A stretch of 64,000 nucleotides of DNA. Origin: Anaerolineales bacterium. Lineage in GTDB: Bacteria; Chloroflexota; Anaerolineae; Anaerolineales; UBA11579. Shown here one piece after another: positions 1 through 14,613 of this stretch (its first letter is position 1; every line of letters begins with the position of its first letter). Below the pieces are notes generated by a model. The model ran no database searches. It saw nothing but the letters and a program-made list of their open reading frames with translations, and was not told the origin of the DNA. The stretch lies in contig JBBEBI010000038.1 in NCBI GenBank assembly GCA_040882365.1, forward strand, positions 2,678 through 66,677, read 5' to 3'. The translations under genes were made by a program, and so were the position numbers.

Positions 1-118
1 GAAACTCGGGCACGGTGAAACCAGGCCCGCGCTGTGAGCGGAACTCCTTGCGGATGACGCGCATCACCAGGGGGATCACTTCCAGGACGCTATCGGCGGT
101 AGGGCGTAGCGGAGACAT
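1..118 (-). CDS. MarR-family transcriptional regulator (N-terminal part, runs off the window)
   Basis: Manual translation from ATG at 118: MSPLRPTADSVLEVIPLVMRVIRKEFRSQRGPGFTVPEF..., resembling a MarR N-terminus. TATAAT lies 6 nt upstream. Not in the ORF track. Confidence 0.6.
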   Translation of the reverse strand, partial: MSPLRPTADSVLEVIPLVMRVIRKEFRSQRGPGFTVPEF

Positions 119-262
119 ATTTCGATTATAAAATTAATTCCAAAGCGAACTATATCACTGTGAAAGTAAAAGGTCAATCCCTAGTGTGGGCGGTCGGACG
201 TAATTCCAACAGGGACAAGCTAAAATGAAGTCAACTCAGGCGTATCTAATTCAGGAGGAGAT

Positions 263-1189
263 ATGGATTTCTTCGCGCAGTTTTTCTGGTGGTTCTTCTG
301 GGGGCTGGTGGTCTTGGTATTGCTGCCAGGCACCATTTTCACGGTCCAACAACAAACCGCGGTCATCGCTCAGCGCTTCGGTAAGTTCGTGCGTATCTAT
401 AAGGCCGGGCTCAATTTCAAGATCCCGCTCATCGAACAAATTGCTGGCCGAGTAAATCTGCGTTTGCAGCAACTGGATGTGGAGATCGAGACCAAGACCA
501 AGGACAACGTTTTCGTTCGCATGGTGGTCTCCGTGCAATACCTGATTCGTGAGGACAAGGTTTACGACGCTTTCTACAAACTGCAGGATCCGCACACGCA
601 GATCAAATCCTTTGTTTTCGACGTCGTCCGTTCCAATGTTCCTAAAATGATCCTGGATGAAGTGTTCGAGAATAAAGACGACATTGCCAATGCGGTACGT
701 ACGGAACTCTCCGAAGCCATGAATGACTTTGGTTATGACATCCGCCAGACCCTGATCACCGATATCGACCCGGATGAAAAGGTCAAGCAGGCGATGAACG
801 AGATCAACACTCAGCAGCGCTTGCGCCTGGCGGCCACCGAGAAAGCCCAGGCCGAATACATCATGACTGTGCGCGCCGCCGAAGGCGAAGCCGAGAGCAA
901 GCGCCTGCAGGGCGTGGGCATTGCCAACCAGCGCAAGGAGATCGCCCAGGGCCTCAGCACGGCGGTCGTTGATTTTCAGAAAGAGATCAGCAGCGTTTCT
1001 CCCCAAACGGTGATGGACCTGCTTATGGTCACCCAGCACTTCGACATGCTTAAGGATATCGGCGCCCACGCGGGCAGCAAGGTCATTCTTATCCCCTATT
1101 CGCCCAATGCAGTAGGCGACCTGACCGACCAAATGCGCAACGCCATCTTTGTCGCCAACGAGATGGGTAAAGAAGAGAAAAATAAATAG
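263..1189 (+). CDS. SPFH/band-7 membrane protein (plant HIR-like subfamily)
   Basis: N-terminal TM segment; RFGKF..AGL, ETKTKDNVFV, DAFYKL, DIDPDEKVKQAMNEIN and AEGEAESKRLQG motifs; SD AGGAGG. Confidence 0.92.
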   Translation: MDFFAQFFWWFFWGLVVLVLLPGTIFTVQQQTAVIAQRFGKFVRIYKAGLNFKIPLIEQIAGRVNLRLQQLDVEIETKTKDNVFVRMVVSVQYLIREDKVYDAFYKLQDPHTQIKSFVFDVVRSNVPKMILDEVFENKDDIANAVRTELSEAMNDFGYDIRQTLITDIDPDEKVKQAMNEINTQQRLRLAATEKAQAEYIMTVRAAEGEAESKRLQGVGIANQRKEIAQGLSTAVVDFQKEISSVSPQTVMDLLMVTQHFDMLKDIGAHAGSKVILIPYSPNAVGDLTDQMRNAIFVANEMGKEEKNK

Positions 1190-1285
1190 GAGTAGTGCCC
1201 TTCTAATCAATACGGGCAATTACTTGTGTTTTTTGTTGTCCCAACTTAATTCATTTTCGCAGCGCGAACTCTATAGGCCAAACAA

Positions 1286-1314
1286 TTGACCGGGTTACCT
1301 TCTCATAATATAAT
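1286..1314 (+). promoter_or_regulatory. Near-consensus sigma70 promoter for the 618-aa gene
   Basis: TTGACC (1286-1291), N17, TATAAT (1309-1314). Confidence 0.7.
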
Positions 1315-1365
1315 CACGACTTACATTCTTTTTCGTCCTTATGAAGAAAGGGAGACAAAGCAGCT

Positions 1366-3222
1366 ATGGACATTGAAAAATTCCTGTCTGAACAAGTAAA
1401 ACCAGGAGAAACATTCACAGCGGGAGTTGCTAGTATAGATTTTATTAATGCCACAGAGCTCTCTGGTACACCTCAGCAAATCGCCGACACCAAAACAGCC
1501 TTTCTAGAACTGGTCTCATCGCTTATCGAAAATCAACCTATTGCAGTATTGAATTGGTCGGGAGATGGTGGCCTGTTGATCTGTGACGGGGCACGTGGAT
1601 TTGACGACCTTGTTGTTGTGTGTGACAAGACATTGGGATTTTTACCCTTTTTCAATCGCTCCTTGGGACGCTTCACCTATTTGAATGATGATCGCATTCA
1701 TGTACGAATTGTGTGCAACTCGGCCTTTGTGCAGAACACCGGCGAAGCGAAGACGTTCACTGCCGAAGTGGTAAATAAAACAGCCAAATATGAAAGAAAT
1801 ATTGGTATCCGGGATCACTTGGTTGTCACCAGTAATATTTACAGCGGCCTGTCGCTTGATTTTCAAAGGAGGCTTGCTCCCAGCTCAGTCTCAGACAATA
1901 AACTTGGACCTTATTACGTTTTAGATGCGCTTGAGAGTAATTCGATCGTTCGCAGAAATGAATTTACCTCGGAGAAGATCAGAGATTGGATCGCAGCTGC
2001 GGCGAAGTTAAAAAAGTATGACGAAATCATGATTTTTACTTATACGAATGAAAGCCTTTATGAGTACTTGAGTACGCCGTTACCGGGCATAACCATTAGG
2101 GTATTGGCTAGAAATTGGCTCAAGGAAGCCGAAGAGGAGAATGCTTATAACCACAAGATGAGCCAAACTTCCCCGGCTTCAGAGCTCCGTAGATTATGGA
2201 AAAAGGCAGACGTTATAAAACGCGACGCTGAAATATTGATTGATGAAAGGCGCGATCAGCCTTATAAAAATGAATTCAACATAAGGTTTTATGAATCAAG
2301 GCCGCTTTTCAAAGGTATTATCTTGCGCAACTCACAAACAAAAAGGAGGATCGGGTACATAGGCCATTATGCCTGGGACCTTGATTGGCAGACGGGAGGG
2401 AGCCCGATCATTGGCGAGAATTGGTCAGCAGTTTGGCTGAGTGAAGACGGCGGCAGCCAATCGAATATGTTGGATGCAGTTACCAGCCGGTTTGAAGAGC
2501 TGTGGGAAAATGGCAAGAGCTTTGAAGAACTTGATGAAACTGAACAACAACAGGCTCTCATTGCTCAATACAAAGAAAACGTTAAGGCTGTGTGGGAAAT
2601 AGATGATAAGCCTTTTCTGGTTATCGTTCCCGGACGCGAAAAACCAGGAAGGCTTTATCCGCTGGTGGGGGCTGAAGATTTATTGGCCATGCGCAGTGTG
2701 GAGAGATTCCTGCGTGAACATGGGGCCGCCTTTGCGCTAAAGATAATGACAACCGGGGATTCAACTGAGATAAGCAAGAAGTGGGACGGCCATCTTATTT
2801 ATATCTGCCATAGAACTATCAGCCCCGAGTATTTGACTGAACTCAAAAAAGGGGGCTTCCCATATGATATTGTGACCAAAGAAGGAGGAAAACCAAGCAT
2901 CGTGCATATTCCTTACAAGCACGAGTATTTTTCTCCGATGGATGAAGATTCACCGCAAGAAAGAGATTTTTGTCTTGTCGCAAAGACCCGCCGCCCTGAC
3001 AAGGCAGGTAGTTTATTCATTATCGCCGGATTGCATGGGATGGGGACGCTAGCTGGGGCCCAATATCTAACAAATCAAGATCAGCTTAGAATTCTTTTTG
3101 AAGCGCGAAAGAATCTCGATTTTTGCACCGTGGTCGAATGTGAATTCAGAGAGCTCTGGGAAATAGTAAAAATGGAGAATGTAACCTTCCCGGAAGGCTC
3201 CGAGAAACTGGCTGCCAACTGA
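1366..3222 (+). CDS. Multidomain protein: class III nucleotide cyclase-like N-terminus, PLD-fold/DUF5919-like middle domain, uncharacterised C-terminal alpha/beta domain
   Basis: 618-aa ORF, visibly AT-richer than its flanks. Cyclase-like motifs SIDFINAT (D25), WSGDG (D67), HVRIVCNS, VVNKTAKYE and LVVTSNIY. Middle domain has IRFYESRP...FEELWE. C-terminus has DFCLVAK...IIAGLHGMGTLAGAQYL. Confidence 0.6.
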   Translation: MDIEKFLSEQVKPGETFTAGVASIDFINATELSGTPQQIADTKTAFLELVSSLIENQPIAVLNWSGDGGLLICDGARGFDDLVVVCDKTLGFLPFFNRSLGRFTYLNDDRIHVRIVCNSAFVQNTGEAKTFTAEVVNKTAKYERNIGIRDHLVVTSNIYSGLSLDFQRRLAPSSVSDNKLGPYYVLDALESNSIVRRNEFTSEKIRDWIAAAAKLKKYDEIMIFTYTNESLYEYLSTPLPGITIRVLARNWLKEAEEENAYNHKMSQTSPASELRRLWKKADVIKRDAEILIDERRDQPYKNEFNIRFYESRPLFKGIILRNSQTKRRIGYIGHYAWDLDWQTGGSPIIGENWSAVWLSEDGGSQSNMLDAVTSRFEELWENGKSFEELDETEQQQALIAQYKENVKAVWEIDDKPFLVIVPGREKPGRLYPLVGAEDLLAMRSVERFLREHGAAFALKIMTTGDSTEISKKWDGHLIYICHRTISPEYLTELKKGGFPYDIVTKEGGKPSIVHIPYKHEYFSPMDEDSPQERDFCLVAKTRRPDKAGSLFIIAGLHGMGTLAGAQYLTNQDQLRILFEARKNLDFCTVVECEFRELWEIVKMENVTFPEGSEKLAAN

Positions 3223-3267
3223 GCCACCTGCTTGAGGTGCCCCCAGGTGAATCTTGCTAGCGAAACC

Positions 3268-3528
3268 TTAGTCTTTTACCCTTATCGAGTACATCGTAGG
3301 CATCTTGGCCACGAACGGGCACTGGGAAGCGCCGGGGCAAGTCGATCCGCAGGTGGCGGCGCAAGGGCTGGCATTCACTTCGTCGCCCATCTGCAGCCGG
3401 CCTTTGCCAACCCAAAACTCGATCATCCCCTTGAGCGCGCTGGGCTCTATATTCACTTTCGCCGCCAACTCATCCAGCCGCAGTGTGCCCTGTGCAGCCT
3501 GCATTTCGCGAAGTACTCGGCTCAGCAT
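3268..3528 (-). CDS. feoC: FeoC-like winged-helix, Cys-rich protein
   Basis: MLSRVLREM...LDELAAKVNIEPSALKGMIEFWVGKGRL followed by C-x3-C-x3-C-x5-C; last gene of the feo operon. Confidence 0.75.
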   Translation of the reverse strand: MLSRVLREMQAAQGTLRLDELAAKVNIEPSALKGMIEFWVGKGRLQMGDEVNASPCAATCGSTCPGASQCPFVAKMPTMYSIRVKD

Positions 3529-3530
3529 TT

Positions 3531-5273
3531 CTATCCCAACCCCAGTAACAGGCCACCCTGGAAGACCGCGAAGGCCATGAGCCAGGCCAAAGCCGTTTGC
3601 CCCAGGATGCTGGCCCACATCACCCGGCTGCCGAATTCCTGGCGCTCAGCGGCCACCGCCGCCATGCAAGGCGTGTAGAGCAATACGAAGACCATGAAAG
3701 CCAGGCCGGCCAGGGCGCCGTGCCCTGTACCTTGAACCTGGCTGATCCGCTCGAAGCCGCTGCCAATGGAAACCATGAGGTCCGTTTGGGGTGATTCTTC
3801 CTGTGCCTCGCGCAGATCGATGCCGATGATCAGCGGCAAAGCCTTCAGCGTATCCACCGTGGCTTTCACAAAACCTTCCCCGATATCCCCAAGCTCTTCG
3901 ATAAAGCTGCCGGTCGATGGCGCGTAGGCAGCCGCCTCCGTGTTGTACACCTGAGCCAGCGTGCTTACGACCACTTCTTTGGCCACAAAGCCGCTGAACA
4001 AGGCCCCGCTGGCCTCCCAACTGCCAAAGCCCAGCGGTTGGAACAGCGGCGCGGCCGCGGATGAGACCTTGGCGAACAGGCTCTGCTCGACGGGCGTATC
4101 GGCAAAGGTGCCGTTCCCGGCCACCGGCAAGGCCATACTCAGCCATAACAGCACACTCACGATCACAATGATTCCACCGGCCTTGCGCACAAAACCGCCG
4201 GTGTGCTCTCGCACGTGAAACCAGATCGACTTCAGGCTAGGCAGACGAAAGGGCGGCAATTCCATCACAAAGGTCGAGGCCTGCTTGCCTTTGAAGGCCG
4301 TGTTCTTTAGCACCAGACCCACGCCGACTGCCGTAAAGATGCCGAATAAGTACATGCCGAACACAACACTCCCACCGGCCGCCGGAAAGAAAACAGCCGC
4401 AAACAAAAGGTAGACAGGCAGGCGAGCGCCGCAACTCATGAAGGGCACCAGCAGGGCGGTGAGGATGCGGTCCCGCCGGTTTTCCAGGATGCGCGTTGCA
4501 AAAAAGGCAGGCACGGTGCAGCCGAAGCCCACCAGCATGGGCAGGAAACTCTTGCCATGCAGGCCTAATGTGTTCATCAGGCGGTCCATCACGAAGGCGG
4601 CCCGCGCCATATAGCCCGAATCCTCCAGGATGCCCAGCACAAGATAAAGGGACATGAGCACGGGAAGGAACACCAGCACGCCGCCCACGCCGGCGATGAC
4701 GCCACCCACCACTAGGCTTTCCATCCAACTGCCTCCCAAGCCCAGAACGCCAAAAAAAACTTGCGCCCAGTGAGTGAGTGGTCCATTGATCACCGCGTCC
4801 ACCCAATTCAGGAAGGGGGCCGAGACGTCAACTGTGATCTTCAAAGTCGCCCACATGGCGAACAGAAAGATGGGGATGCCGAAGGTGCGGCTGGTGAGTA
4901 TGCGATCGACGCGATCCGAAACTGAAACGGTAGGCGAAGCCGGTCGAGCTACTGCCTGTCGCACCAGGTTGTTGATCCAGGTGTAGCGCCGGTCGGCAAT
5001 AAGCGCGTCGGCATCATCGCCGAAACGCGCCGCCAGTCTCGCTGCGGCCTCGCGCGCCTGGAGAACAACGGCTTGGCCACCGTCTTGGTTGGCTATCTCG
5101 TCCAGGACCTTTTCGTCACCCTCCAGCAATTTGACGGCCAGCCAGCGCGGCGAAGCATTACCAGCAAGGGGAGTGTTGGCAACCGCCCGTTGCAAACGGG
5201 AGATCTCTGCTTCAAAATCCGTGCCGTAGTCGAGACGAAACTCTTGAAGGGAAAGTAAACCCGCGCCCATCAT
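3531..5273 (-). CDS. feoB: Ferrous iron transport protein B, helical and membrane domains (split FeoB, C-terminal part)
   Basis: LEDSGYMARAAF, GFGCTVPA, PFMSCGARLPVY, FVMELPPFR, AKEVVV and LYTPC motifs; no G-domain. Confidence 0.92.
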   Translation of the reverse strand: MMGAGLLSLQEFRLDYGTDFEAEISRLQRAVANTPLAGNASPRWLAVKLLEGDEKVLDEIANQDGGQAVVLQAREAAARLAARFGDDADALIADRRYTWINNLVRQAVARPASPTVSVSDRVDRILTSRTFGIPIFLFAMWATLKITVDVSAPFLNWVDAVINGPLTHWAQVFFGVLGLGGSWMESLVVGGVIAGVGGVLVFLPVLMSLYLVLGILEDSGYMARAAFVMDRLMNTLGLHGKSFLPMLVGFGCTVPAFFATRILENRRDRILTALLVPFMSCGARLPVYLLFAAVFFPAAGGSVVFGMYLFGIFTAVGVGLVLKNTAFKGKQASTFVMELPPFRLPSLKSIWFHVREHTGGFVRKAGGIIVIVSVLLWLSMALPVAGNGTFADTPVEQSLFAKVSSAAAPLFQPLGFGSWEASGALFSGFVAKEVVVSTLAQVYNTEAAAYAPSTGSFIEELGDIGEGFVKATVDTLKALPLIIGIDLREAQEESPQTDLMVSIGSGFERISQVQGTGHGALAGLAFMVFVLLYTPCMAAVAAERQEFGSRVMWASILGQTALAWLMAFAVFQGGLLLGLG

Positions 5274-5821
5274 GCTCCAGTGGCGAACTTCACCAGCTCG
5301 GCGCGCAGGGCCTCTACCCCTCCGCCGCGGCTGGCCACTGTGGCTAAGGTGGGCGCGCCCAGCGATTTGTGGAGCAGCTCCAGATCGATGCGCAACCCGC
5401 GCGCCGCGGCCAGATCGCTCATGTTGAGCGCCACGATCAGGGGTGAGCCCAGTTCCAGCAGTTGCACCGTGAGATAGAGATTACGTTCCAGGTTGGAAGC
5501 GTCCACCACAGCCACGACAGCATCCGGTTTTTCGTTGAGGATGTAATCGCGGGCGATGACTTCTTCGATGGAGAAGGCGCTGAGGCTATAGATGCCGGGC
5601 AGATCCACCAGTTCGATTTCCACGCCGTCTTGGAAGAAGCTTCCCTGTTTCTTCTCCACGGTTTTCCCCGGCCAGTTGCCCACGTGCTGCCGTGAGCCGG
5701 TGAGCTGGTTGAACAGGCTGCTCTTGCCCGCGTTCGGATTTCCAGCCAGGGCCACGCGCAGCTTTTTCTTTTTTTCGGGACCCTTGGTGCCGCAGCAATT
5801 ATGCCCTCCGCCGTTAATCAT
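5270..5821 (-). CDS. feoB: FeoB small GTPase domain (split FeoB, N-terminal part)
   Basis: G1 GNPNAGKS, VGNWPGKTVE, G3 DLPG, G4 NMSD; ATGA overlap with the downstream membrane-domain ORF. Confidence 0.92.
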   Translation of the reverse strand: MINGGGHNCCGTKGPEKKKKLRVALAGNPNAGKSSLFNQLTGSRQHVGNWPGKTVEKKQGSFFQDGVEIELVDLPGIYSLSAFSIEEVIARDYILNEKPDAVVAVVDASNLERNLYLTVQLLELGSPLIVALNMSDLAAARGLRIDLELLHKSLGAPTLATVASRGGGVEALRAELVKFATGA

Positions 5822-6054
5822 TACTGCACCTCGACCAGCACCAGCTGCGCCTCACGCTTGCGCAGCGAGAGGCGGTAACCTTTGATCTGGTATTCCACCG
5901 GATCACCCAGCGGAGCGACGCGTACCACCTCGATGCGTTCGCCGCGCACCAGGCCCATCACCAGCAGGCGCTGGCGGTCGGCGCCTTTGGCTGCCAGTTT
6001 TAAGATGCGCCCGGTTTGGCCGGTCTTCAACTCGCTAAGCAACGCAGCTTGCAT
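5821..6054 (-). CDS. feoA: Ferrous iron transport protein A
   Basis: RLLVMGL..G..I..VRVAPLGDPVEY..GYRLSLRK.EA. Confidence 0.95.
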   Translation of the reverse strand: MQAALLSELKTGQTGRILKLAAKGADRQRLLVMGLVRGERIEVVRVAPLGDPVEYQIKGYRLSLRKREAQLVLVEVQ

Positions 6055-6062
6055 GCCAGCAC

Positions 6063-6728
6063 CTAGTCGATTAATTCCACAGCGAGGATCTGCTCCGCTA
6101 TGGCTCCAGTAAGTTCCGTGCGATCCCCTGTCGTTTCCACGAGTACATCGCCGCGGCTGCTGGTCGCCAGCAGGCTTACCTGTTTCCCCTCACTGATTCC
6201 TTGCGAATCCAAGAAGTGGCGCAGGGTTTCGTCTGCAATTTTCACGATTTGGTAACGGCGGCCCGCCTTTTGGTGGGTAAGCGGCTGCTCTATGATGGGT
6301 CCGGCTTCCTCCACAGCAGGAATGGGTAGACCCTGCGGGCTGGTTTGCGGGTGGCCTAAAAATCCGGCCAGACGCTCAGTGACCTCATCGGCGCCGAGAT
6401 GCTCGAAGCGGCAGGCGAGGGCGTCGGCTTCAGCAAAACCCAAATCCAACTGTTCGACGAGGAACAGCTCCCAAAGGCGGCGGCGTCGCAGCGTGCGATT
6501 GGCATGCCGGCGTCCTTCCGGTTGCAAGGCAACGCCCTTGTACGGTTGGTAGTCCAGGAGGCCTTCTTCCTGAAGTTTATGCACCATCTGGTTAGCGGAA
6601 ACGGGGACCACAGAAAGTTCGGTGGCCAGCCTGGAAAGCGGCACCGGGCCCTCCACTCCACGCTCGGCCAGTTTGGCCAGAGTGATCAGGTACATCTCTT
6701 CGCTTTCGCTCATCTTTAGGTCTTCCAT
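6063..6728 (-). CDS. DtxR/MntR-family metal-dependent repressor with C-terminal FeoA domain
   Basis: SESEEMYL, HTH, YQPYKGV.L, RLWELFL and ACRFEH motifs; start placed at ATG 6728 after GAGG. Confidence 0.9.
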   Translation of the reverse strand: MEDLKMSESEEMYLITLAKLAERGVEGPVPLSRLATELSVVPVSANQMVHKLQEEGLLDYQPYKGVALQPEGRRHANRTLRRRRLWELFLVEQLDLGFAEADALACRFEHLGADEVTERLAGFLGHPQTSPQGLPIPAVEEAGPIIEQPLTHQKAGRRYQIVKIADETLRHFLDSQGISEGKQVSLLATSSRGDVLVETTGDRTELTGAIAEQILAVELID

Positions 6729-6854
6729 AGCAACCTCGCCAACTCTTATGGGCAACCTTAACAATGCCCCAAAGCGGCCAGCTTGCCTACCAGCAGATGT
6801 CCCTCCCTATACGGTCAAACGTCCCTGGATGCCGGCCTAAGCTAAAATTGCCCT

Positions 6855-8810
6855 ATGCCTGCTACGCCGACTTCCGCCTCTTCCATCGTCTGGACGCCGA
6901 ACAAGGATTACATCGAAAACGCCCGCCTTACCAAGTTCATGCGCGCCTATGGCATCGGCAGCTTTGATGACCTGATGGCGCGCTCGACAAGCGACGTAGC
7001 CTGGTTCACCGAAGCCGTCTTGAAATTCCTCGATATCCAGTTCTACGAACCTTATTCCAAAGTAGTCGATCTTTCCAACGGGATAATGTGGCCTCAGTGG
7101 TGCGTGGGTGGCCGGATGAACATTGTGCACAATTGCCTCGACAAGTACATCGGCACAACCACCGAAAACCAACCCGCCCTTGTTTGGGAAGGCGAAAACG
7201 GCCAAGCGCTTACGCTCACCTATGGTGAGCTTTACGCACGGGTCAATCAAGCCGCCAGCGCGTTGCGCTCCCTCGGCCTGGGCAAAGGGGATGCGGTCGG
7301 CATCTTCATGCCTATGGTCCCGGAGATCGTTGTGGCCCTGTTGGCCATCGCCAAGATCGGCGGCATCATCTTGCCGCTCTTCTCCGGCTACGGCGTGGAC
7401 GCGGTGGTCAGCCGCCTGGCCGACGCAGATGCCAAGGCGCTATTCACCGCCGATGGCTTTCCGCGGCGCGGCAAGCCCGTCGAGATGAAATCCATCGCCG
7501 ATAAAGCCGCCGGCCAGTTGCCCAACCTCAAGCACCTCATCGTGCTTAAGCACGCCAACATCGAAGTACCTATCCTGCTAGGCCGCGATCATTGGTGGCA
7601 CGAATTCCTCGACACCCAGTCCCCGGAGGCGGACACCGAGCGCATCGCCGCGGAGGATCCACTGATGATCATCTACACCTCGGGCACCACCGGCCGCCCA
7701 AAGGGGGCCGTGCACACCCATTGTGGCTTCCCGGTCAAGGCCGCGCAGGACATGGCTTTTGGCACCGACGTGCGCCCCGGTCATCTCATTTATTGGATGA
7801 CGGATCTGGGCTGGATGATGGGCCCCTGGCTGGTGTTCGGCGCGCTGCTGCTGGGCGCCACCTTTTTTCTTTACGATGGCGCACACGATTTCCCTGGTCC
7901 AAACCGGCTTTGGGCGCTGGTGGAGAAACACAAGATCACCACCCTGGGTGTTTCGCCCACGCTGATCCGCGCCCTCATTCCTTTTGGCGAGAAGCCGGTG
8001 AAAGCCCACGATCTATCCGCCCTGCGCTATTTTGCCTCCACCGGCGAACCCTGGAATCCCGACCCCTGGCATTGGCTCTTCGAGGTCGTCGGTGAATCCA
8101 AGCGGCCCATCATCAACTATTCCGGCGGCACGGAGATCTCGGGCGGCATCCTGATGGGAAACCCCATCCTGCCGCTCAAGGCCACGGCCTTCGCCGGGCC
8201 TTGCCCTGGCATGGCCGCCGACGTCTTCAACGAAGCCGGCGAATCCGTCACCGGCGAAGTGGGCGAACTGGTCATCAAAGCGCCATGGATCGGCATGACC
8301 CGCGGCTTCTGGAAAGACCCCGCCCGCTATGAAGAGACGTATTGGTCGCGCTGGCCGAACGTGTGGGTGCACGGCGACTGGGCTGCCAAGGACGGGGATG
8401 GCCTCTGGTACATCCTCGGCCGCTCCGACGACACCATCAAGGTGGCCGGCAAGCGCCTTGGCCCGGCCGAAGTCGAATCCGTATTGGTTGCGCATCCGCA
8501 AGTCGTGGAAGCAGCCGCCATCGCCGTGCCCGACGAGCTCAAGGGAAACCAGGTGGTTTGCTTTTGCGTCCTTCAGTCCGGTGCCGCAGCCACGGAGGAA
8601 TTGCGCAAGGAACTGCGCGCCAGCCTGGTGGCCGCCCTTGGCAAGCCGCTGGCGCCCAAAGCCCTGCTCTTCGTCAGCGATCTGCCCAAGACGCGCAACG
8701 CCAAGGTGATGCGCCGCATGGTGCGCGCCGCCTATCTCGGCGAACCTGCCGGCGATACCTCGTCGCTAGTCAATCCGGAAGCGGTGGAGGAGATCAGACG
8801 CGCGCAATGA
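6855..8810 (+). CDS. Acetyl-CoA synthetase-like AMP-forming acyl-CoA ligase
   Basis: YTSGTTGRPKG, STGEPW, SGGTE, HGD, GRSDD and LPKTRNAKVMRR motifs. Confidence 0.9.
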   Translation: MPATPTSASSIVWTPNKDYIENARLTKFMRAYGIGSFDDLMARSTSDVAWFTEAVLKFLDIQFYEPYSKVVDLSNGIMWPQWCVGGRMNIVHNCLDKYIGTTTENQPALVWEGENGQALTLTYGELYARVNQAASALRSLGLGKGDAVGIFMPMVPEIVVALLAIAKIGGIILPLFSGYGVDAVVSRLADADAKALFTADGFPRRGKPVEMKSIADKAAGQLPNLKHLIVLKHANIEVPILLGRDHWWHEFLDTQSPEADTERIAAEDPLMIIYTSGTTGRPKGAVHTHCGFPVKAAQDMAFGTDVRPGHLIYWMTDLGWMMGPWLVFGALLLGATFFLYDGAHDFPGPNRLWALVEKHKITTLGVSPTLIRALIPFGEKPVKAHDLSALRYFASTGEPWNPDPWHWLFEVVGESKRPIINYSGGTEISGGILMGNPILPLKATAFAGPCPGMAADVFNEAGESVTGEVGELVIKAPWIGMTRGFWKDPARYEETYWSRWPNVWVHGDWAAKDGDGLWYILGRSDDTIKVAGKRLGPAEVESVLVAHPQVVEAAAIAVPDELKGNQVVCFCVLQSGAAATEELRKELRASLVAALGKPLAPKALLFVSDLPKTRNAKVMRRMVRAAYLGEPAGDTSSLVNPEAVEEIRRAQ

Positions 8811-8863: not shown

Positions 8864-9292
8864 TTATTCCATGATTGGCATCAAGAGATGCAATTCTGCT
8901 TGGCTGCGATAGAACTCAACATCGGGCCTGCTGGAGTCTTTCATGTACTTGGAATGCAGAAATGCGAAGATTTCGCCGATCTCCCCTGTATGCTCGCTCC
9001 AGTTTAGCAACTTCACACAGACGTACTTTCCGCTACCTAGGAGCATGGTGGGAAGGCCAAGGGCCTTGATTTCTTCCGGATCACTTGTTTCCAGGGTCGC
9101 ATAGTAAGTGATCTTGTCGCCTTCAGTAAAGGCCAGGCCATAGAAGCTTCTGCCTTTCAGCGACCTCAATTTGGATTCCAGGCGCTGCCAGCAGCCTTTT
9201 AAATCCTCAGGAAATTTGGTTGCCCGGCTAACCACTAGTTGAGCCCCTGGGAACTCAATAACATTCACTTTCAGTTCTGCGGGGAGGACCAT
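8864..9292 (-). CDS. GyrI-like small-molecule/effector-binding domain protein
   Basis: W.RL....KGRSFYG, GKY and RPDVEFYRSQAELHLLMP motifs; AAGGAG upstream of ATG 9292. Confidence 0.65.
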   Translation of the reverse strand: MVLPAELKVNVIEFPGAQLVVSRATKFPEDLKGCWQRLESKLRSLKGRSFYGLAFTEGDKITYYATLETSDPEEIKALGLPTMLLGSGKYVCVKLLNWSEHTGEIGEIFAFLHSKYMKDSSRPDVEFYRSQAELHLLMPIME

Positions 9293-9411
9293 ATTCCACT
9301 CCTTTGCAAGGATAGGCACCAAAGTCCTGATTTCAGTTTACGTCTCTATCGGGGAATATTTAACTGTCTCATATCGTCTTTGCTGGTTTCGATTATCATC
9401 GCAATGCTCCC

Positions 9412-10251
9412 ATGCCCGCGCCCTTCATCGCCGCCCTCTTCGCCTTATCCGCCGCCGTCGCCTGGGGTTCCGGCGACTTCGTCAGCGGTCTGTCCGCCCG
9501 CCGCATCGGCGCACTTTACACCCTGCTTCTTTCCTTCATCGTCGGCCTGGCCGGCCTTCTCATTTTGACTCTGCTCGGCGCCGAGCCAATTCCCGCCTTC
9601 GCCGATCTGGCCTGGGGCGTCTTGGCGGGCATGCTGGGCACGGGCGGCTTCATTTTCATGCTGCGCGGCTTCACCGTCGGCCGCATGAGCATCGTTGCGC
9701 CGGTCTCCGCTATATTAGCGGCCGCCATTCCGGTGGTGATCACCGCTTTTAGTGAGGGCGTGCCGCATCAAGGTCAATTGCTCGGCTTCGCTCTCGCTTT
9801 TGCCAGCATCTGGCTGCTCTCCAGCCAGGGAAACGAAAAAAGCAGGCCCGCTGGCATCGGCTTGGCCCTGGTTGCCGGCCTCGGCTTTGGCCTTTTCTTC
9901 ACCATGCTGGACCAGATCTCGGTAGGCGTGATCTTCTGGCCGCTGGTTGCCAGCCGCCTGGTTGCAGGTTTGCTGCTGGCGGGATACTTTGTCGTCACCC
10001 GTCAGCCCCTTGTTCCTTCAAAACCCCCCTGGGGCTTGCTTGTGGCCTCCGGCCTGCTAGATGTCGGCGGCAACTTCTTCTTCCTGCAAGCCGTGCAAAC
10101 GGGCCGCCTGGATTTGTCCGCCGTGCTCGTCTCGCTCTACCCGGCAGTCACTGTGCTACTGGCCCTGCTGATCGCTAAGGAACGCATCTCTCGCCTTCAG
10201 GCGGCCGGTGTGGTTGCCGCCCTGATTGCCATCCTCTTGATTACTATTTAA
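9412..10251 (+). CDS. EamA/DMT-family transporter
   Basis: About 10 hydrophobic segments in two repeats; WGSGDF, MSIVAP and SLYPAVT.LLA..I.KER motifs. Confidence 0.9.
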   Translation: MPAPFIAALFALSAAVAWGSGDFVSGLSARRIGALYTLLLSFIVGLAGLLILTLLGAEPIPAFADLAWGVLAGMLGTGGFIFMLRGFTVGRMSIVAPVSAILAAAIPVVITAFSEGVPHQGQLLGFALAFASIWLLSSQGNEKSRPAGIGLALVAGLGFGLFFTMLDQISVGVIFWPLVASRLVAGLLLAGYFVVTRQPLVPSKPPWGLLVASGLLDVGGNFFFLQAVQTGRLDLSAVLVSLYPAVTVLLALLIAKERISRLQAAGVVAALIAILLITI

Positions 10252-10275
10252 GACTTTTGAAGCCTCAAACTGCCC

Positions 10276-10941
10276 CTACCAATCGATCGGGGCCTGTCCC
10301 TTCGACTCCAAGAAACCGTTGGCCTTCGAGAACGGCCGGCTGCCGAAGAAGCCGCTGCTCGCCGAAAGCGGCGACGGGTGCGCCGACTCGATCACGTAAT
10401 GCTGGTTGCGGTCGATCAGCGCGCCCTTGCGCTTAGCATACGCGCCCCACAGGGTGAACACCAGCCCCTCGCGCTGCTCCGAAAGGATGCGCAGCACCGC
10501 ATCCGTGAAAGTCTCCCAACCCCTGCCCTGATGCGACCCGGCCTGCCCCTGGCGCACCGTCAGCGTGGCGTTCAATAGCAGCACGCCCTGCTGCGCCCAG
10601 CGCTCCAAGTTGCCGCTGGCCGGCGGCTGCACGCCAAGGTCAGCTTTCAATTCCTTGTAGATATTTACCAGCGAGGGCGGAAGCGGCAAGCCTTCGTTCA
10701 CCGAAAAGCACAGCCCGTTGGCCTGCCTCGGGCCGTGGTAAGGATCTTGCCCAAGGATTACCACCTTGACCTTGTCGAACGTGCATTTGTCAAATGCATT
10801 GAAAATCTTGCCGCCCGGAGGATAAATAGTGTATTTCTGGTATTCTTCGTGCACGAACGCGGCCAACTGCTGGAAATAGGGCTTCTCGAATTCCACCTCC
10901 AGCTTCTCTTTCCAGCTCGCCTCAATTTTTACATCGGACAT
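10276..10941 (-). CDS. ung: Uracil-DNA glycosylase, family 1
   Basis: GQDPYH, PPSL.NI, GVLLLN and HPSPLS motifs; start at MSDVKIEASW. Confidence 0.96.
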   Translation of the reverse strand: MSDVKIEASWKEKLEVEFEKPYFQQLAAFVHEEYQKYTIYPPGGKIFNAFDKCTFDKVKVVILGQDPYHGPRQANGLCFSVNEGLPLPPSLVNIYKELKADLGVQPPASGNLERWAQQGVLLLNATLTVRQGQAGSHQGRGWETFTDAVLRILSEQREGLVFTLWGAYAKRKGALIDRNQHYVIESAHPSPLSASSGFFGSRPFSKANGFLESKGQAPIDW

Positions 10942-11119
10942 GGATAAGCCTAATTCTAAACGTTGTGGCCCATGCCGCGGGCCTGACGATTCCTTATCGT
11001 TTATACTCAACATCTGCTCTTCGCCTATGCGCTTGTCAAGATGTATCGACCCCTTCCCCTATTTCCAACAACAACTTGACAACCTGATCCAGCCCCATGC
11101 TATCAAAGGACCCTGACTA

Positions 11120-12265
11120 ATGAATTTTGACCTCACTGACGAACAAATACTCTGGCGCAATGCCATTCACGATTTCGTTGCTAAAGAAGTCAAACCTAAA
11201 GCCAAGGAAGTGGACGAAACCGGTGAATTCAATTGGGCTGCCGTCGAGAGGATGGGTCCCCTCGGCCTTCTGGCCCTCAACGTGGCGGAGCAATACGGGG
11301 GCGGCGTGGACGCGGTCAGCGCCGCCATCGCCATCGAGCAACTAGGCTGGGGCTGCGGCAGTACCGCCTTGGCCATCGCAGCCCACAATGGCTTGGGTTG
11401 CGCCCCCGTCGCTAATTTTGGCTCCGAGGACCTCAAGCAGCGCTTCCTACCCAAGGCGGCAACCGGCAAAGGCAAACTGGCGGCTTTGGCCCTGACTGAG
11501 CCCGGCGCCGGCTCCGATCTCAAGGGCGGTGTGGAGACCCGCGCCGAACTTCACGGGGATGAATGGTTTATCAATGGCAGCAAGATGTGGTGCACTAACG
11601 CCTCAATCGCAGATTTCATCGTTACCCTGGTGCGCACGGAACGAGGCTCCGGTTCCGGCAGCCTAAGCCTCATCGTAGTGCCCACGGACTCCGCCGGTCT
11701 CTCCATTGGCCCGGCAGAAAAGAAGATGGGCTTGCACGGTTCCCCCACTCATGCGGTCAGCTATCAAAACGTGCGCGTGCCCGCCGCCAACCTTGTAGGG
11801 GAGCGCGGCAAAGGCTTGCAATACACCCTGGCCACTCTGGATGGCGGCCGCATCGGCATCGGCGCCCTGGCCACCGGCCTGGCGCAGGCCGCGCTGGACG
11901 AGGCCGTGAAATACGCCAAGGAGCGGCAGACCTTCGGGCAGCCGATTGCCAGCTACCAGGCTGTCCAATGGATGCTGGCCGATGCGGAGACCAACATCAG
12001 CGCTGCTCGCCTCATGGTTTACCGGGCCGCGTTTGCCAAGCAGCAGGGAAAACCATTCACCAAGGAAGCCGCCATGGCCAAACTGTTCGCCACGGAAGCG
12101 GCGGAGAAGGTGTGCCGCGACGCCATCCAGATCCACGGCGGCTATGGCTATTCGAGCGAATACCCCGTGGAGCGCATCTACCGCGACGCGCGCCTGATGA
12201 CCATTGGGGAAGGCACCAGCGAGATCCAGCGCCTGGTCATAGCGCGAGAGATGCTGGGGGACTGA
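11120..12265 (+). CDS. Acyl-CoA dehydrogenase
   Basis: [29 protein letters not shown] and [10 protein letters not shown] motifs. Confidence 0.95.
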
Positions 12266-12779: not shown

Positions 12780-13295
12780 CTACCAGCCCTCGATGTAACT
12801 TGACCATTCCTTGATACTGCTTAGGTAACGGCCGAAAATGTACTGCGCGGAGGCAGTGGGGGTATGTGGGTTCTTGAGCAAATTCATGCCGGCGCTTTCC
12901 ACCATGCGGCCGCCTTTACGATGATTGCAGCTTCGACAGGCGGTAACCAGGTTTTCCCAGCTGTGCTGGCCGCCCAGGCGGCGCGGGATCACGTGATCCA
13001 GGGTCAGCTCGTCGGTCCGGGTGCCGCAATACTGGCAAGTAAAGTCGTCCCGCCGGAAGATCTCCTGTTTGTTCAATTTCACGTGGGGCCGGGGGCGTTT
13101 GATCATGCGGTCCAAGCGGATGACGGAGGGGGCGGGATACATGGCCCGGGCAGTGTGGATTTCACCTCGTCCGTTGAGCAGCATGGAAGCCTTTTCGCCG
13201 AAGATCAACCCCATGGCGCGCCGGATGGTGCACACATTCAGGGGCTCGAAATTGGCATTCAGAACGAGGACGGGTTCCTTGAGATTACTTTGCAT
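12780..13295 (-). CDS. HNH endonuclease (McrA-like, stand-alone family)
   Basis: VLVLNANFEPL, PSVIRL, RRDDFTCQYCG, TLDHVIPR and WENLVTAC..CN..KG motifs. Confidence 0.92.
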   Translation of the reverse strand: MQSNLKEPVLVLNANFEPLNVCTIRRAMGLIFGEKASMLLNGRGEIHTARAMYPAPSVIRLDRMIKRPRPHVKLNKQEIFRRDDFTCQYCGTRTDELTLDHVIPRRLGGQHSWENLVTACRSCNHRKGGRMVESAGMNLLKNPHTPTASAQYIFGRYLSSIKEWSSYIEGW

Positions 13296-13398
13296 AAGCG
13301 CCGGGCATTGGCTAAAAATAAGATTGGGCGATTATAGCATGGGCGTGTAGTAATCGCCCAATGGACTACGCGTGCTATATTTAAGGGCGGAGATCAGC

Positions 13399-14613
13399 AT
13401 GAACATCGATGAACAGGTAGCCACACTGATGCAAGGCACCGAATATGGCGACGATCAACTGCGCGCCGCCATGCAGGCGGAGTTGCGCGAGCGCCTAGCG
13501 GAGGCGGAAAAGGCCAGCCGCAAGCTGCGCGTCTACGCCGGCTTCGACCCGCGCACCACCGACCTGCATTTAGGCCACACCATCCCCATGCGCAAGCTGC
13601 GCCAATTCCAGGACCTCGGCCACGAAGTTATCTTCCTCATCGGCACCTACACGTCGCTGATCGGCGACCCGTCGGATCAGGACAAGTTGCGCCCCCAGTT
13701 GACCCCCCAACAGGTGGAGGAGAACGGACGCACGTATGCCGAGCAGGCTTTCCGGGTCCTGGACCGCCACAAGACCGAGGTGCGCTTCAACGCCGAGTGG
13801 CTCTCGAAAGTCACCTTTGCCGATCTGATCGGCTTCGCTTCCAACTTTACCGTGCAGCAATTCCTCACCCGCGAAAACTTCCGCGAGCGTTGGGATAAGG
13901 GCGACGCTATCTATCTCCACGAGACCTTCTACTCCCTCATGCAGGGATACGATGCTTACATGCTGAAGGCCGACGTGCAAGTGGGCGGCTCGGATCAACT
14001 CTTCAACATTGTCACCGCCGCCCGCAAGCTGATGACCGCGCTGGGCGCCAAGCCCAACATCGGCATCATCATGGGCATCCTGCCCGGCACAGATGGCGAG
14101 AAGAAGATGAGCAAGTCCCTGGGCAACCACATCCCGCTCAACACAAACGCCGATGATATGTACGGCAAGGTGATGAGCGTGCCTGACAAAGCCATGGGCC
14201 TCTTTATGCGCCTGGCTACCCGCTGGACCGCCGGAGATATTGCCGCCAAAGAAAAGGCAGTCGCCGTGGGCAAGCTGCACCCGCGGGATGCCAAAGCGCA
14301 GATCGCCCTGGAGATTACGGAGATCTTCTATGGGGTGGAAGCTGCCAAGGCGGCTCAAGACAACTTCGCCCGTGTCTTTCAGCAAGGCGAATCCCCGGCG
14401 GATATACCCGTGCACAAGTTCACCGCGGGGCTCTCGGTCCTGGACGTGCTGTTGAACGCAGGATTGGCGAAGAGCAAAAGCGAAGGCCGCCGGCTGATCG
14501 AGCAGAATGGGGTGAGGTTAGATGGAGAAGTGCTGGACGACCCGAACCAGCCCTTGTCGCGGCCGGGCGTGCTGCAGGTCGGCAAACGTAAGTTCGTCAG
14601 GCTAGAAAACTAA
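13399..14613 (+). CDS. tyrS: Tyrosine--tRNA ligase
   Basis: GFDP, HLGH, GGSDQ and KMSKS motifs; C-terminal S4 domain. Confidence 0.97.
   Translation: MNIDEQVATLMQGTEYGDDQLRAAMQAELRERLAEAEKASRKLRVYAGFDPRTTDLHLGHTIPMRKLRQFQDLGHEVIFLIGTYTSLIGDPSDQDKLRPQLTPQQVEENGRTYAEQAFRVLDRHKTEVRFNAEWLSKVTFADLIGFASNFTVQQFLTRENFRERWDKGDAIYLHETFYSLMQGYDAYMLKADVQVGGSDQLFNIVTAARKLMTALGAKPNIGIIMGILPGTDGEKKMSKSLGNHIPLNTNADDMYGKVMSVPDKAMGLFMRLATRWTAGDIAAKEKAVAVGKLHPRDAKAQIALEITEIFYGVEAAKAAQDNFARVFQQGESPADIPVHKFTAGLSVLDVLLNAGLAKSKSEGRRLIEQNGVRLDGEVLDDPNQPLSRPGVLQVGKRKFVRLEN

Follow-up and report, generated by a model that had tools for sequence, protein, structure and literature searches.

A patchily distributed gene of an Anaerolineales bacterium encodes a predicted class III cyclase with two putative sensor domains

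Results

Gene and immediate surroundings

The present study describes one gene in a stretch of 64,000 nucleotides (the window) of contig JBBEBI010000038.1 from an Anaerolineales bacterium (assembly GCA_040882365.1). The gene encodes a protein, P0001, in which a predicted class III nucleotidyl cyclase domain is followed by a PLD-fold domain and a flavodoxin-like domain (Table 1). A preliminary description, prepared from the sequence alone, had reported an AT-rich, stand-alone open reading frame (ORF) between an SPFH gene and the end of the feo operon, with its own promoter, and each of these features was recovered in the present study, the promoter as a promoter-like site. The GC content of the gene is 0.45, versus 0.58 in the flanks and in the genome, and its GC content at third codon positions (GC3) is 0.46, versus a median of 0.71. 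This is the 16th lowest GC3 among the 988 ORFs of at least 300 aa in this genome, and ORFs with comparably low values include restriction-type genes, as judged by eye.

The promoter-like site lies inside the 176-bp gap after the SPFH gene, 51 bp ahead of the start codon of P0001, and an AGGGAG ribosome-binding-like site precedes that codon. Since looser sites (at least 9/12 to the consensus) occur at the chance rate (3 observed, 3.4 expected), the case for the promoter consists of its score and its position. Position 1286, given as the start of the unit in the preliminary description, is the -35 box, and the coding start is at 1366. In the assembly check, one contig of a possible source run covered positions 1-7200 of the window, and contigs from a second run of the same study bridged 1261-1617 and 3001-3286. 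P0001 had no match in the Pfam, PADLOC, NCBIfam or PHROG profile libraries, and a simple hydropathy scan detected no membrane helix or hydrophobic segment in it.

Table 1. Features of the P0001 locus (coordinates are positions in the window)
Feature	Coordinates	Strand	Remarks
Gene for the 618-aa three-domain protein P0001	1366..3222	+	Soluble, AT-rich; intact ORF
Class III nucleotidyl cyclase domain, residues ~12-190	1399..1935	+	Predicted; fold match, profile alignment, conservation counts
PLD-fold domain without the HKD His, residues ~195-385	1948..2520	+	Likely sensor; refolded model with a predicted local distance difference test score (pLDDT) of 92.6
Long linker helix, residues ~386-410	2521..2595	+	Predicted helix in both models
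Flavodoxin-like domain resembling BcsB and S_layer_C, residues ~405-605	2578..3180	+	Likely sensor; fold match
Sigma-70-type promoter-like site, TTGACC-17-TATAAT	1286..1314	+	11/12 consensus match; predicted
SPFH/Band 7 gene (neighbour, outside the unit)	263..1189	+	PF01145, E 9e-32
feoC, convergent, end of the feo operon (neighbour, outside the unit)	3268..3534	-	PF09012

Protein family and domain architecture

A word search for relatives of P0001 returned four other proteins. A HMMER family search gave 170 matches at E≤0.001, of which the best 150 were taken. In all, 153 proteins (P0001 included) were scored against three domain profiles, and many of the single-domain rows are fragments. All three domains were found in 26 of the 153 proteins, P0001 counted. 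The PLD-fold domain and the C-terminal domain (C-domain) were combined in seven; P0027, P0028 and P0032 among these have a different N-terminus, and the remainder look like fragments. One protein, P0129, joined the cyclase to the C-domain without the PLD fold, and the others had the cyclase only (41), the PLD fold only (45) or the C-domain only (33). A helix-turn-helix (HTH) identity for the N-termini of P0027, P0028 and P0038 was tested and not supported.

In a quick tree, with rows chosen by their likeness to P0001, the cyclase domains taken from 24 of the three-domain proteins formed one side of a branch with an SH-aLRT value of 98. This topology is compatible with the architecture having arisen once, as far as sequences chosen in this way may indicate. 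No relationship was detected between the two rear domains of P0001 (hhalign probability, 10%), and PDB sequence searches returned nothing credible for P0001 alone or for either rear domain. Since the mean pLDDT of the middle domain was only 57 in the full-length model, this domain was refolded alone from 76 sequences. The predicted folds of the first and second domains are well supported, and that of the third is moderately supported. We conclude that P0001 represents a real, conserved and uncharacterised family of three-domain cyclases, a putative variant of regulated class III cyclases.

Cyclase domain

The class III cyclase fold proposed for the N-terminus was supported by comparison of the predicted structure. 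The predicted model matched CyaB (3r5g) with a VIA Z score of 17.3 and a root mean square deviation (rmsd) of 2.6 over 174 residues, and the Foldseek E-value was 4e-7. The pLDDT of this model is mostly 60-85, and lower at residues 94-111 and 143-150. At the sequence level, the family profile gave one weak cyclase match among PDB sequences (E 0.021); aligned to the cyclase 3mr7, it placed D, GDG, R and N in register, with K opposite R. Class III cyclases scored Z 12-17 on the model, including PycC at 12.9-13.6, versus approximately 10 for GGDEF folds; the Cas10 palm also matched at approximately 10.

The motifs quoted in the preliminary description, the metal-binding D25 and D67, N137 and the Lys in place of Arg (K141) were all at the places given for them. 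Among the 23 full-length proteins, D25, D67 and R114 were present in 23/23, N137 in 19/23 and K141 in 18/23. The corresponding counts in 36 further cyclase relatives were D 36/36, D 35/36, R 35/36, N 35/36 and K 36/36, and the clade markers W64 and E143 were found in 34/36 and 36/36, respectively. Since the metal and transition-state positions are conserved, the active site looks to be under selection. The transition-state Asn-x3-Arg pair is altered: its Arg was present in 0/23 proteins, with the Lys at its place in 18/23 and, in the wider clade, in 36/36. Active enzymes that depart from this pair exist, for example Ma1120, according to PMC4215837. The same source gives Lys/Asp as the base selectors of adenylyl cyclases and Glu/Cys-type residues as those of guanylyl cyclases. 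Neither pair was conserved in the 23 proteins (position 63, Lys 2/23 and Glu 0/23; position 130, Asp 2/23, Cys 0/23 and Thr 10/23), in agreement with the earlier remark that these positions do not look like those of adenylate or guanylate cyclases. In PycC, an aromatic residue of the base pocket stands two residues before the first Asp (F100 in EaPycC, F60 in AnPycC; PMC11224242). At this position, Tyr occurred in 1/23 and Phe in 0/23 of our proteins. These patterns mark a distinct cyclase clade with an apparently working metal site, the base of which is not predictable from sequence.

The wider clade (proteins P0065-P0151, the cyclase-only set) has the motif W-x-GDGG, N-x3-K-x-E-R. This set escapes Pfam nearly completely, with one weak Guanylate_cyc match (P0130). 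The rear domains in this clade are diverse: NUDIX, methyltransferase, TPR, NTP-transferase and DUF1045 domains occur in other members. The rear parts of the two-domain cyclases P0066, P0081, P0138, P0141 and P0148 looked PLD-like by eye; however, they did not match the PLD profile of P0001 and, thus, we regard them as other PLD subfamilies.

PLD-fold domain

The refolded middle domain matched the PLD domain of SauUSI (Z 10.9), the sugar-binding domain of TrmB (10.6), FAM83B (10.2) and NucT (10.0). The top 28 rows belonged to the PLD superfamily, as judged by us from their titles, versus Z≤4.5 for unrelated folds. The conserved residues are Y226, T227, E229, R249, W251, E254, N262, W278, K280, K316, G345 and S346; column counts were 71/76 for E229, 75/76 for R249, 74/76 for E254, 74/76 for K280 and 57/76 for K316. 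As a reference we used HxK(x4)D, the canonical motif of PLD/HKD enzymes. P0001 contains no HxKxxxxD motif. The Lys of HxK (K316) is mostly kept, and the His two residues before it was present in 1/76 proteins, in a register inferred from strand position and from two relatives with K-x4-D-x6-G spacing. No Pfam family covered the 76 members. The resemblance to an HKD-less PLD fold noted in the preliminary description was thus supported. Membership of DUF5919, which it also mentioned, found no support among the families listed: DUF5919 was absent from the 25 listed of the 85 Pfam families matched by the 76 members at E up to 1.

Apart from fragments and two proteins with other N-termini, the PLD-only proteins were examined with the simple hydropathy scan (37/45). 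Two N-terminal hydrophobic segments were found in 29, one in six and none in two. A HAD domain occurs in two PLD-fold relatives, one of which has a TIR-like N-terminus (TIR by eye). In PycTM, a globular part behind the membrane helices binds the signal, according to PMC11224242. By analogy, the PLD-only relatives appear to share the layout of membrane immune effectors, namely, helices followed by a putative signal-binding globular part. As a separate observation, a family of 240-310 aa with two predicted membrane helices and a His-less PLD fold (P0044-P0124) is a candidate membrane immune effector.

Flavodoxin-like C-terminal domain

The C-terminus, which the preliminary description left unassigned, may now be placed by its predicted fold. 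In the full-length model it matched BcsB (6yg8) with Z 9.5 and an rmsd of 4.2 over 131 residues. The S_layer_C cluster gave an Atlas feature score of 0.89, which is a lead only, and unnamed Atlas clusters fused to HTH matched with TM of approximately 0.8. The conserved residues are E437, D438, C481, S523, P524, D526, D534, G555, H557 and G560.

In other proteins, this domain is fused to TIR_2 (P0041), AAA+ (P0046) and HTH (P0064, P0086, P0120 and P0152). Apart from these fusions and fragments, C-domain-only proteins were scanned (13/33), and 10 of the 13 had one hydrophobic segment followed by a net charge of +3 to +5, which suggests that the C-domain is cytoplasmic. The HTH and C-domain form was found on 27 actinobacterial plasmid records. 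In the three plasmid operons that were read, it heads UTRA and AAA_33 kinase genes (two operons) or HTH and HD phosphohydrolase genes (one), and in the metagenome loci with this form the next gene was PP2C-like in 4/6 tested. These arrangements likely represent a ligand-controlled plasmid circuit. Since kinases and phosphohydrolases adjoin the regulator, the ligand may be phosphorylated. We also noted that actinobacterial plasmid regulators annotated as "sigma-70 family" consist of a short HTH and a flavodoxin-like domain (L076, NZ_CP109292.1; L077, NZ_CP107812.1; L078, CP091383.1; also L028, L030, L031 and L032).

Distribution and gene neighbourhoods

The P0001 gene was present in 4/401 genomes of the order, with an intact frame in all four, and in 1/22 other members of the genus. 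A phylum-wide sample contained the full gene in 2/401 genomes, namely, its own genome and G044. At one and the same site, G146 has approximately 1.96 kb and G065 approximately 95 bp, between flanks that are 96% and 91% identical. The P0001 gene is an indel of approximately 2 kb between close relatives and its distribution is patchy. It is AT-richer than its flanks in 9/12 loci, including all six with at least 5 kb of flank, where its GC content is 6-20 points lower. The horizontal acquisition suggested in the preliminary description is supported in so far as the occurrence of the gene is patchy and looks mobile.

Three genomes from a single family carry the gene 0.2-3.6 kb upstream of acs. It was absent from 16 other genus loci around acs, two of which are truncated and one rearranged. 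The SPFH gene lies near acs in genus members without the P0001 gene. We considered whether the slot upstream of acs is a defence hotspot and rejected this reading: the 16 loci were empty or contained methyltransferase, GDSL lipase, LCP protein, GGDEF and AlkZ-related genes. No conserved partner gene was found, and neighbours were shared only among the three same-family loci near acs. Neighbouring proteins at 11 loci were compared with PADLOC (63/76 called ORFs; antisense shadows and duplicates were dropped).

Viral contigs, phages and plasmids had no match for full P0001, its middle domain, P0070 or P0071, and phages had none for P0064. A viral fold search with P0001 returned generic cyclases only. 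The own genome (88% complete) contains four cyclic nucleotide (cNMP)-binding-domain matches and two canonical cyclases, and a second copy of either rear domain was not found in it.

Individual loci had further features. In L020 (7248-9800), which lies beside a serine recombinase gene, a full-length homologue follows an AAA_33/zeta-like kinase gene at a distance of 18 bp; this arrangement was seen at one locus only. In L007 (G044), the homologue (9234-11123, -) is co-directional between two deaminase genes, and an AT-rich gene for a 501-aa protein without a Pfam or PADLOC match lies approximately 1.8 kb from it (12945-14450, +). L016 (337-2524) has a homologue and a 92-aa ORF between the genes for the flavoprotein (by eye) and the iron-sulfur protein (Pfam) of an apparent succinate dehydrogenase/fumarate reductase operon. 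L006 encodes a 586-aa protein (6856-8616, -), 5 kb from the homologue, the PHP-like N-terminus of which partly matches the PADLOC Ppl model. In the window, FeoB is encoded by two intact ORFs overlapping by 4 bp (3531-5821, -), one for the GTPase (183 aa) and the other for the helical and membrane part (580 aa). Among the 18 genus loci compared, a feoCBA-dtxR block between the SPFH gene and acs was found in the own genome only.

Comparison with known systems

P0001 shares the predicted fold, the two metal Asp, the RIGIH-type strand Arg, the transition-state Asn and the motif order with class III cyclases that have regulatory domains (CyaB 3r5g, CyaC 1wc1, Ma1120 and Rv1900c). In contrast to these enzymes, it falls below the Pfam threshold, has Lys for Arg and has neither a Lys/Asp nor a Glu/Cys selector pair. 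Moreover, its cyclase domain stands at the N-terminus, ahead of two domains that are not known to occur on cyclases.

The likeness to Pycsar and Pucsar lies in a divergent, mobile class III cyclase with a likely non-standard base, and the PycC structures 7r65, 8jsf and 8jsz matched with Z of 13.6, 13.3 and 12.9, respectively. However, no cNMP-binding effector gene, and no PycTM or PycTIR PADLOC match, was found among the 63 neighbours of the 11 loci, the own genome (88% complete) has no PF10137, and there was no AGS-C match. P0001 itself had no PycC PADLOC match, does not keep the PycC aromatic residue, and has extra PLD-fold and flavodoxin-like domains. The available text of the Pucsar preprint (10.64898/2026.08.12.744502) names STAND, AGS-C, TIR and 3TM associations and, within that text, no PLD-fold fusion. 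No description of the P0001 architecture or its context was found in the literature; the figures and supplements of that preprint and of the TIR survey 10.64898/2025.12.03.692087, which list architectures and accessions, lie outside this coverage and could include the clade. The analogy with Pycsar drawn in the preliminary description did not hold, given the lack of a partner gene among the 63 neighbours, of the PycC specificity residues and of a PADLOC match. We conclude that P0001 is not Pycsar.

The middle domain shares its fold with the PLD domains of TrmB (2f5t), FAM83 (DUF1669) and the nucleases SauUSI, NucT and Nuc (Z 9.4-10.9), and the Lys of HxK is mostly kept. It differs from these named domains by the missing His, its own motif set and the lack of a Pfam family, and its relatives are mostly fused to two transmembrane helices (2TM). 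The third domain resembles the flavodoxin-like domain of BcsB and S_layer_C (PF05124) at the fold level only. Those are periplasmic or surface structural domains, whereas the domain of P0001 belongs to a soluble protein without a hydrophobic segment, recurs in HTH, TIR and AAA+ fusions and has no Pfam match.

Immune effectors with a 2TM sensor (PycTM, CBASS 2TM and Thoeris TM) have the same layout of two helices and a globular domain as the relatives of the middle domain. In P0001, however, the position of these helices is taken by the cyclase. Unlike Thoeris, P0001 had no signalling TIR PADLOC match among the 63 neighbours, and no TIR_2 was found in its genome (88% complete). As to Panoptes, no mCpol was among the 50 fold matches listed, no partner gene was seen, and class III folds outscored GGDEF and Cas10.

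Discussion

We propose that P0001 is a mobile stand-alone class III cyclase that is likely switched on by two small-molecule sensor domains in cis, probably for conflict with phages or invading DNA. We give this proposal, taken as a whole, a probability of roughly 45%. Across their fusions, the two rear domains sit behind output modules: membrane helices, TIR, HTH or AAA+. Since the module ahead of them in P0001 is a cyclase, a sensor-gated cyclase is the most economical reading. The modular reuse of the domains also speaks for this reading, both in P0129 (cyclase and C-domain) and in P0027, P0028 and P0032 (PLD fold and C-domain behind another N-terminus). The non-catalytic domains of TrmB and FAM83 among the top PLD-fold matches were also counted for a sensor role. 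The preliminary description had envisaged a synthase, sensor and effector in one polypeptide. P0001 contains no membrane helix, the catalytic His is missing from its PLD fold, and in other fusions the two rear domains each occupy the position of a sensor; the cyclase is thereby left as the output. P0001 is best read as a sensor-gated cyclase, in which an effector is not evident, rather than as a synthase-sensor-effector. We favour a role in conflict because of the mobility of the gene and the company that its rear domains keep with TM and TIR modules. A defence role is plausible, without support from the neighbourhood.

We speculate that P0001 acts as follows. The protein would form a homodimer with two Mg-dependent sites, as in other class III cyclases. 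A phosphorylated small molecule or nucleotide would bind the pocket of the PLD-fold domain, the flavodoxin-like domain or both. The linker helix may then relay the change, and the cyclase would convert a nucleoside triphosphate (NTP) to a 3',5'-cNMP, the base of which is not predictable. Since the chain holds no evident effector, the output would act outside the protein, via cNMP-binding proteins of the host or by draining NTP. The four cNMP-binding matches in the own genome could receive the product.

Several observations weigh against this proposal. The neighbourhoods, which the preliminary description had suggested checking for defence islands, contained none among the 63 proteins. Five of these matched PADLOC (a GTPase, an ABC ATPase, a methyltransferase, a PHP and a RidA-like protein) and were judged to be generic housekeeping proteins, and among the directly adjoining genes are SPFH/feo, MarR/methyltransferase, acs, two deaminases, ferritin/creatininase and TIM. 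Phages and viral contigs had no full-length match, plasmids had no match to the PLD domain, and TIR_2 was not found in the own genome, which is 88% complete. At three short loci, the AT content of the gene does not exceed that of the flanks, and old residence followed by repeated loss would account for the position near acs in the three same-family genomes as well as repeated arrival would. The canonical transition-state Arg is absent from the cyclase. The case for sensors comes from where the domains stand in their fusions, and the conserved polar residues, which are dense in the PLD fold, could equally be catalytic. The catalytic, ligand-binding and defence roles of P0001 are all predictions from sequences and models.

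A more far-reaching form of our proposal would make P0001 a one-gene anti-phage system, in which an undescribed cyclase clade makes a non-canonical nucleotide. The His-less PLD fold and the BcsB/S-layer-like domain would then represent two families of nucleotide-signal receptors that have so far escaped recognition and that recur on 2TM, TIR, HTH and AAA+ proteins. With them in P0001, a cyclase would no longer open an immune pathway but form its output, as a signal relay or an NTP drain in one chain. We consider this form unlikely.

Among the alternatives, P0001 may be an accessory signalling enzyme, a metabolite-gated cyclase that feeds the cNMP-binding regulators of the host and has no defence role. 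The housekeeping neighbourhoods without a defence island agree with this explanation, as do the cNMP-binding matches and canonical cyclases of the own genome. The closest folds are physiological cyclases (Z 17.3 for CyaB versus 13.6 for PycC), the sugar-binding domain of TrmB is among the top matches of the middle domain, and the C-domain is used in plasmid transcription regulators. However, the very patchy, AT-rich and indel-like occurrence of the gene counts against it, as does the presence of both rear domains in other proteins beside 2TM or TIR modules, which are typical of immunity. The same-genus homologue is 55% identical, versus 80% for acs and 88% for SPFH, although MarR is at 52%. 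We regard an enzyme without a defence role as possible, though on the doubtful side.

Less likely still is a closed system, in which the signal of the cyclase is bound by one rear domain, with the other serving as a non-canonical enzymatic effector, such as a His-less PLD-fold nuclease or an NTPase; a guard variant, in which a constitutive product keeps the effector off, is included here. For a single gene without a partner, defence would be simplest in cis. The near-invariant polar residues E229, R249, E254, K280 and K316 and the best fold match, the PLD nuclease domain of SauUSI, point in the same direction. The Menshen paper predicts a nuclease for a divergent PLD fold, albeit one with a conserved HDR motif (PMC12065111). 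However, the catalytic His occurs in 1/76 proteins and P0001 has no membrane helix. Both rear domains occur elsewhere without the cyclase, behind membrane helices or other modules and, thus, do not need its product in cis.

A different two-metal nucleotidyl reaction, such as making a dinucleotide, whether cyclic or linear, transferring NMP or breaking down NTP, would make P0001 a decoy maker or a toxic NTP drain. We consider this improbable because class III cyclases outscore GGDEF folds on the model (Z 12-17 versus approximately 10), and the motif order and the Asn agree with class III in the 3mr7 profile alignment. It would accommodate the lack of a conserved base selector, the clade-specific invariant W64 and K-x-E-R/K motif, the Lys for Arg, the GGDEF and Cas10 palm matches at Z of approximately 10, and the NUDIX, NTP-transferase and DUF1045 domains found on relatives. 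The replaced Arg, the lost base selectors and the Asn missing in 4/23 family members might suggest a scaffold that binds NTP and is catalytically dead, or a decaying passenger gene. This is very improbable in view of the intact frame in 4/4 genome matches, metal ligands that are invariant at 25-70% identity, and the three-domain form being one side of the SH-aLRT 98 branch in the quick tree.

The present study revealed a conserved cyclase clade that standard profiles overlook, with an intact metal site and a base selector that is not recognisable. The two unnamed domains appear to serve as plug-in ligand sensors in membrane proteins, TIR proteins and DNA-binding proteins alike, and the ligands that they bind could point to new second messengers in plasmid regulation or bacterial immunity. 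Even if P0001 is a plain metabolic sensor, it would still provide class III cyclases with an input of a new type.

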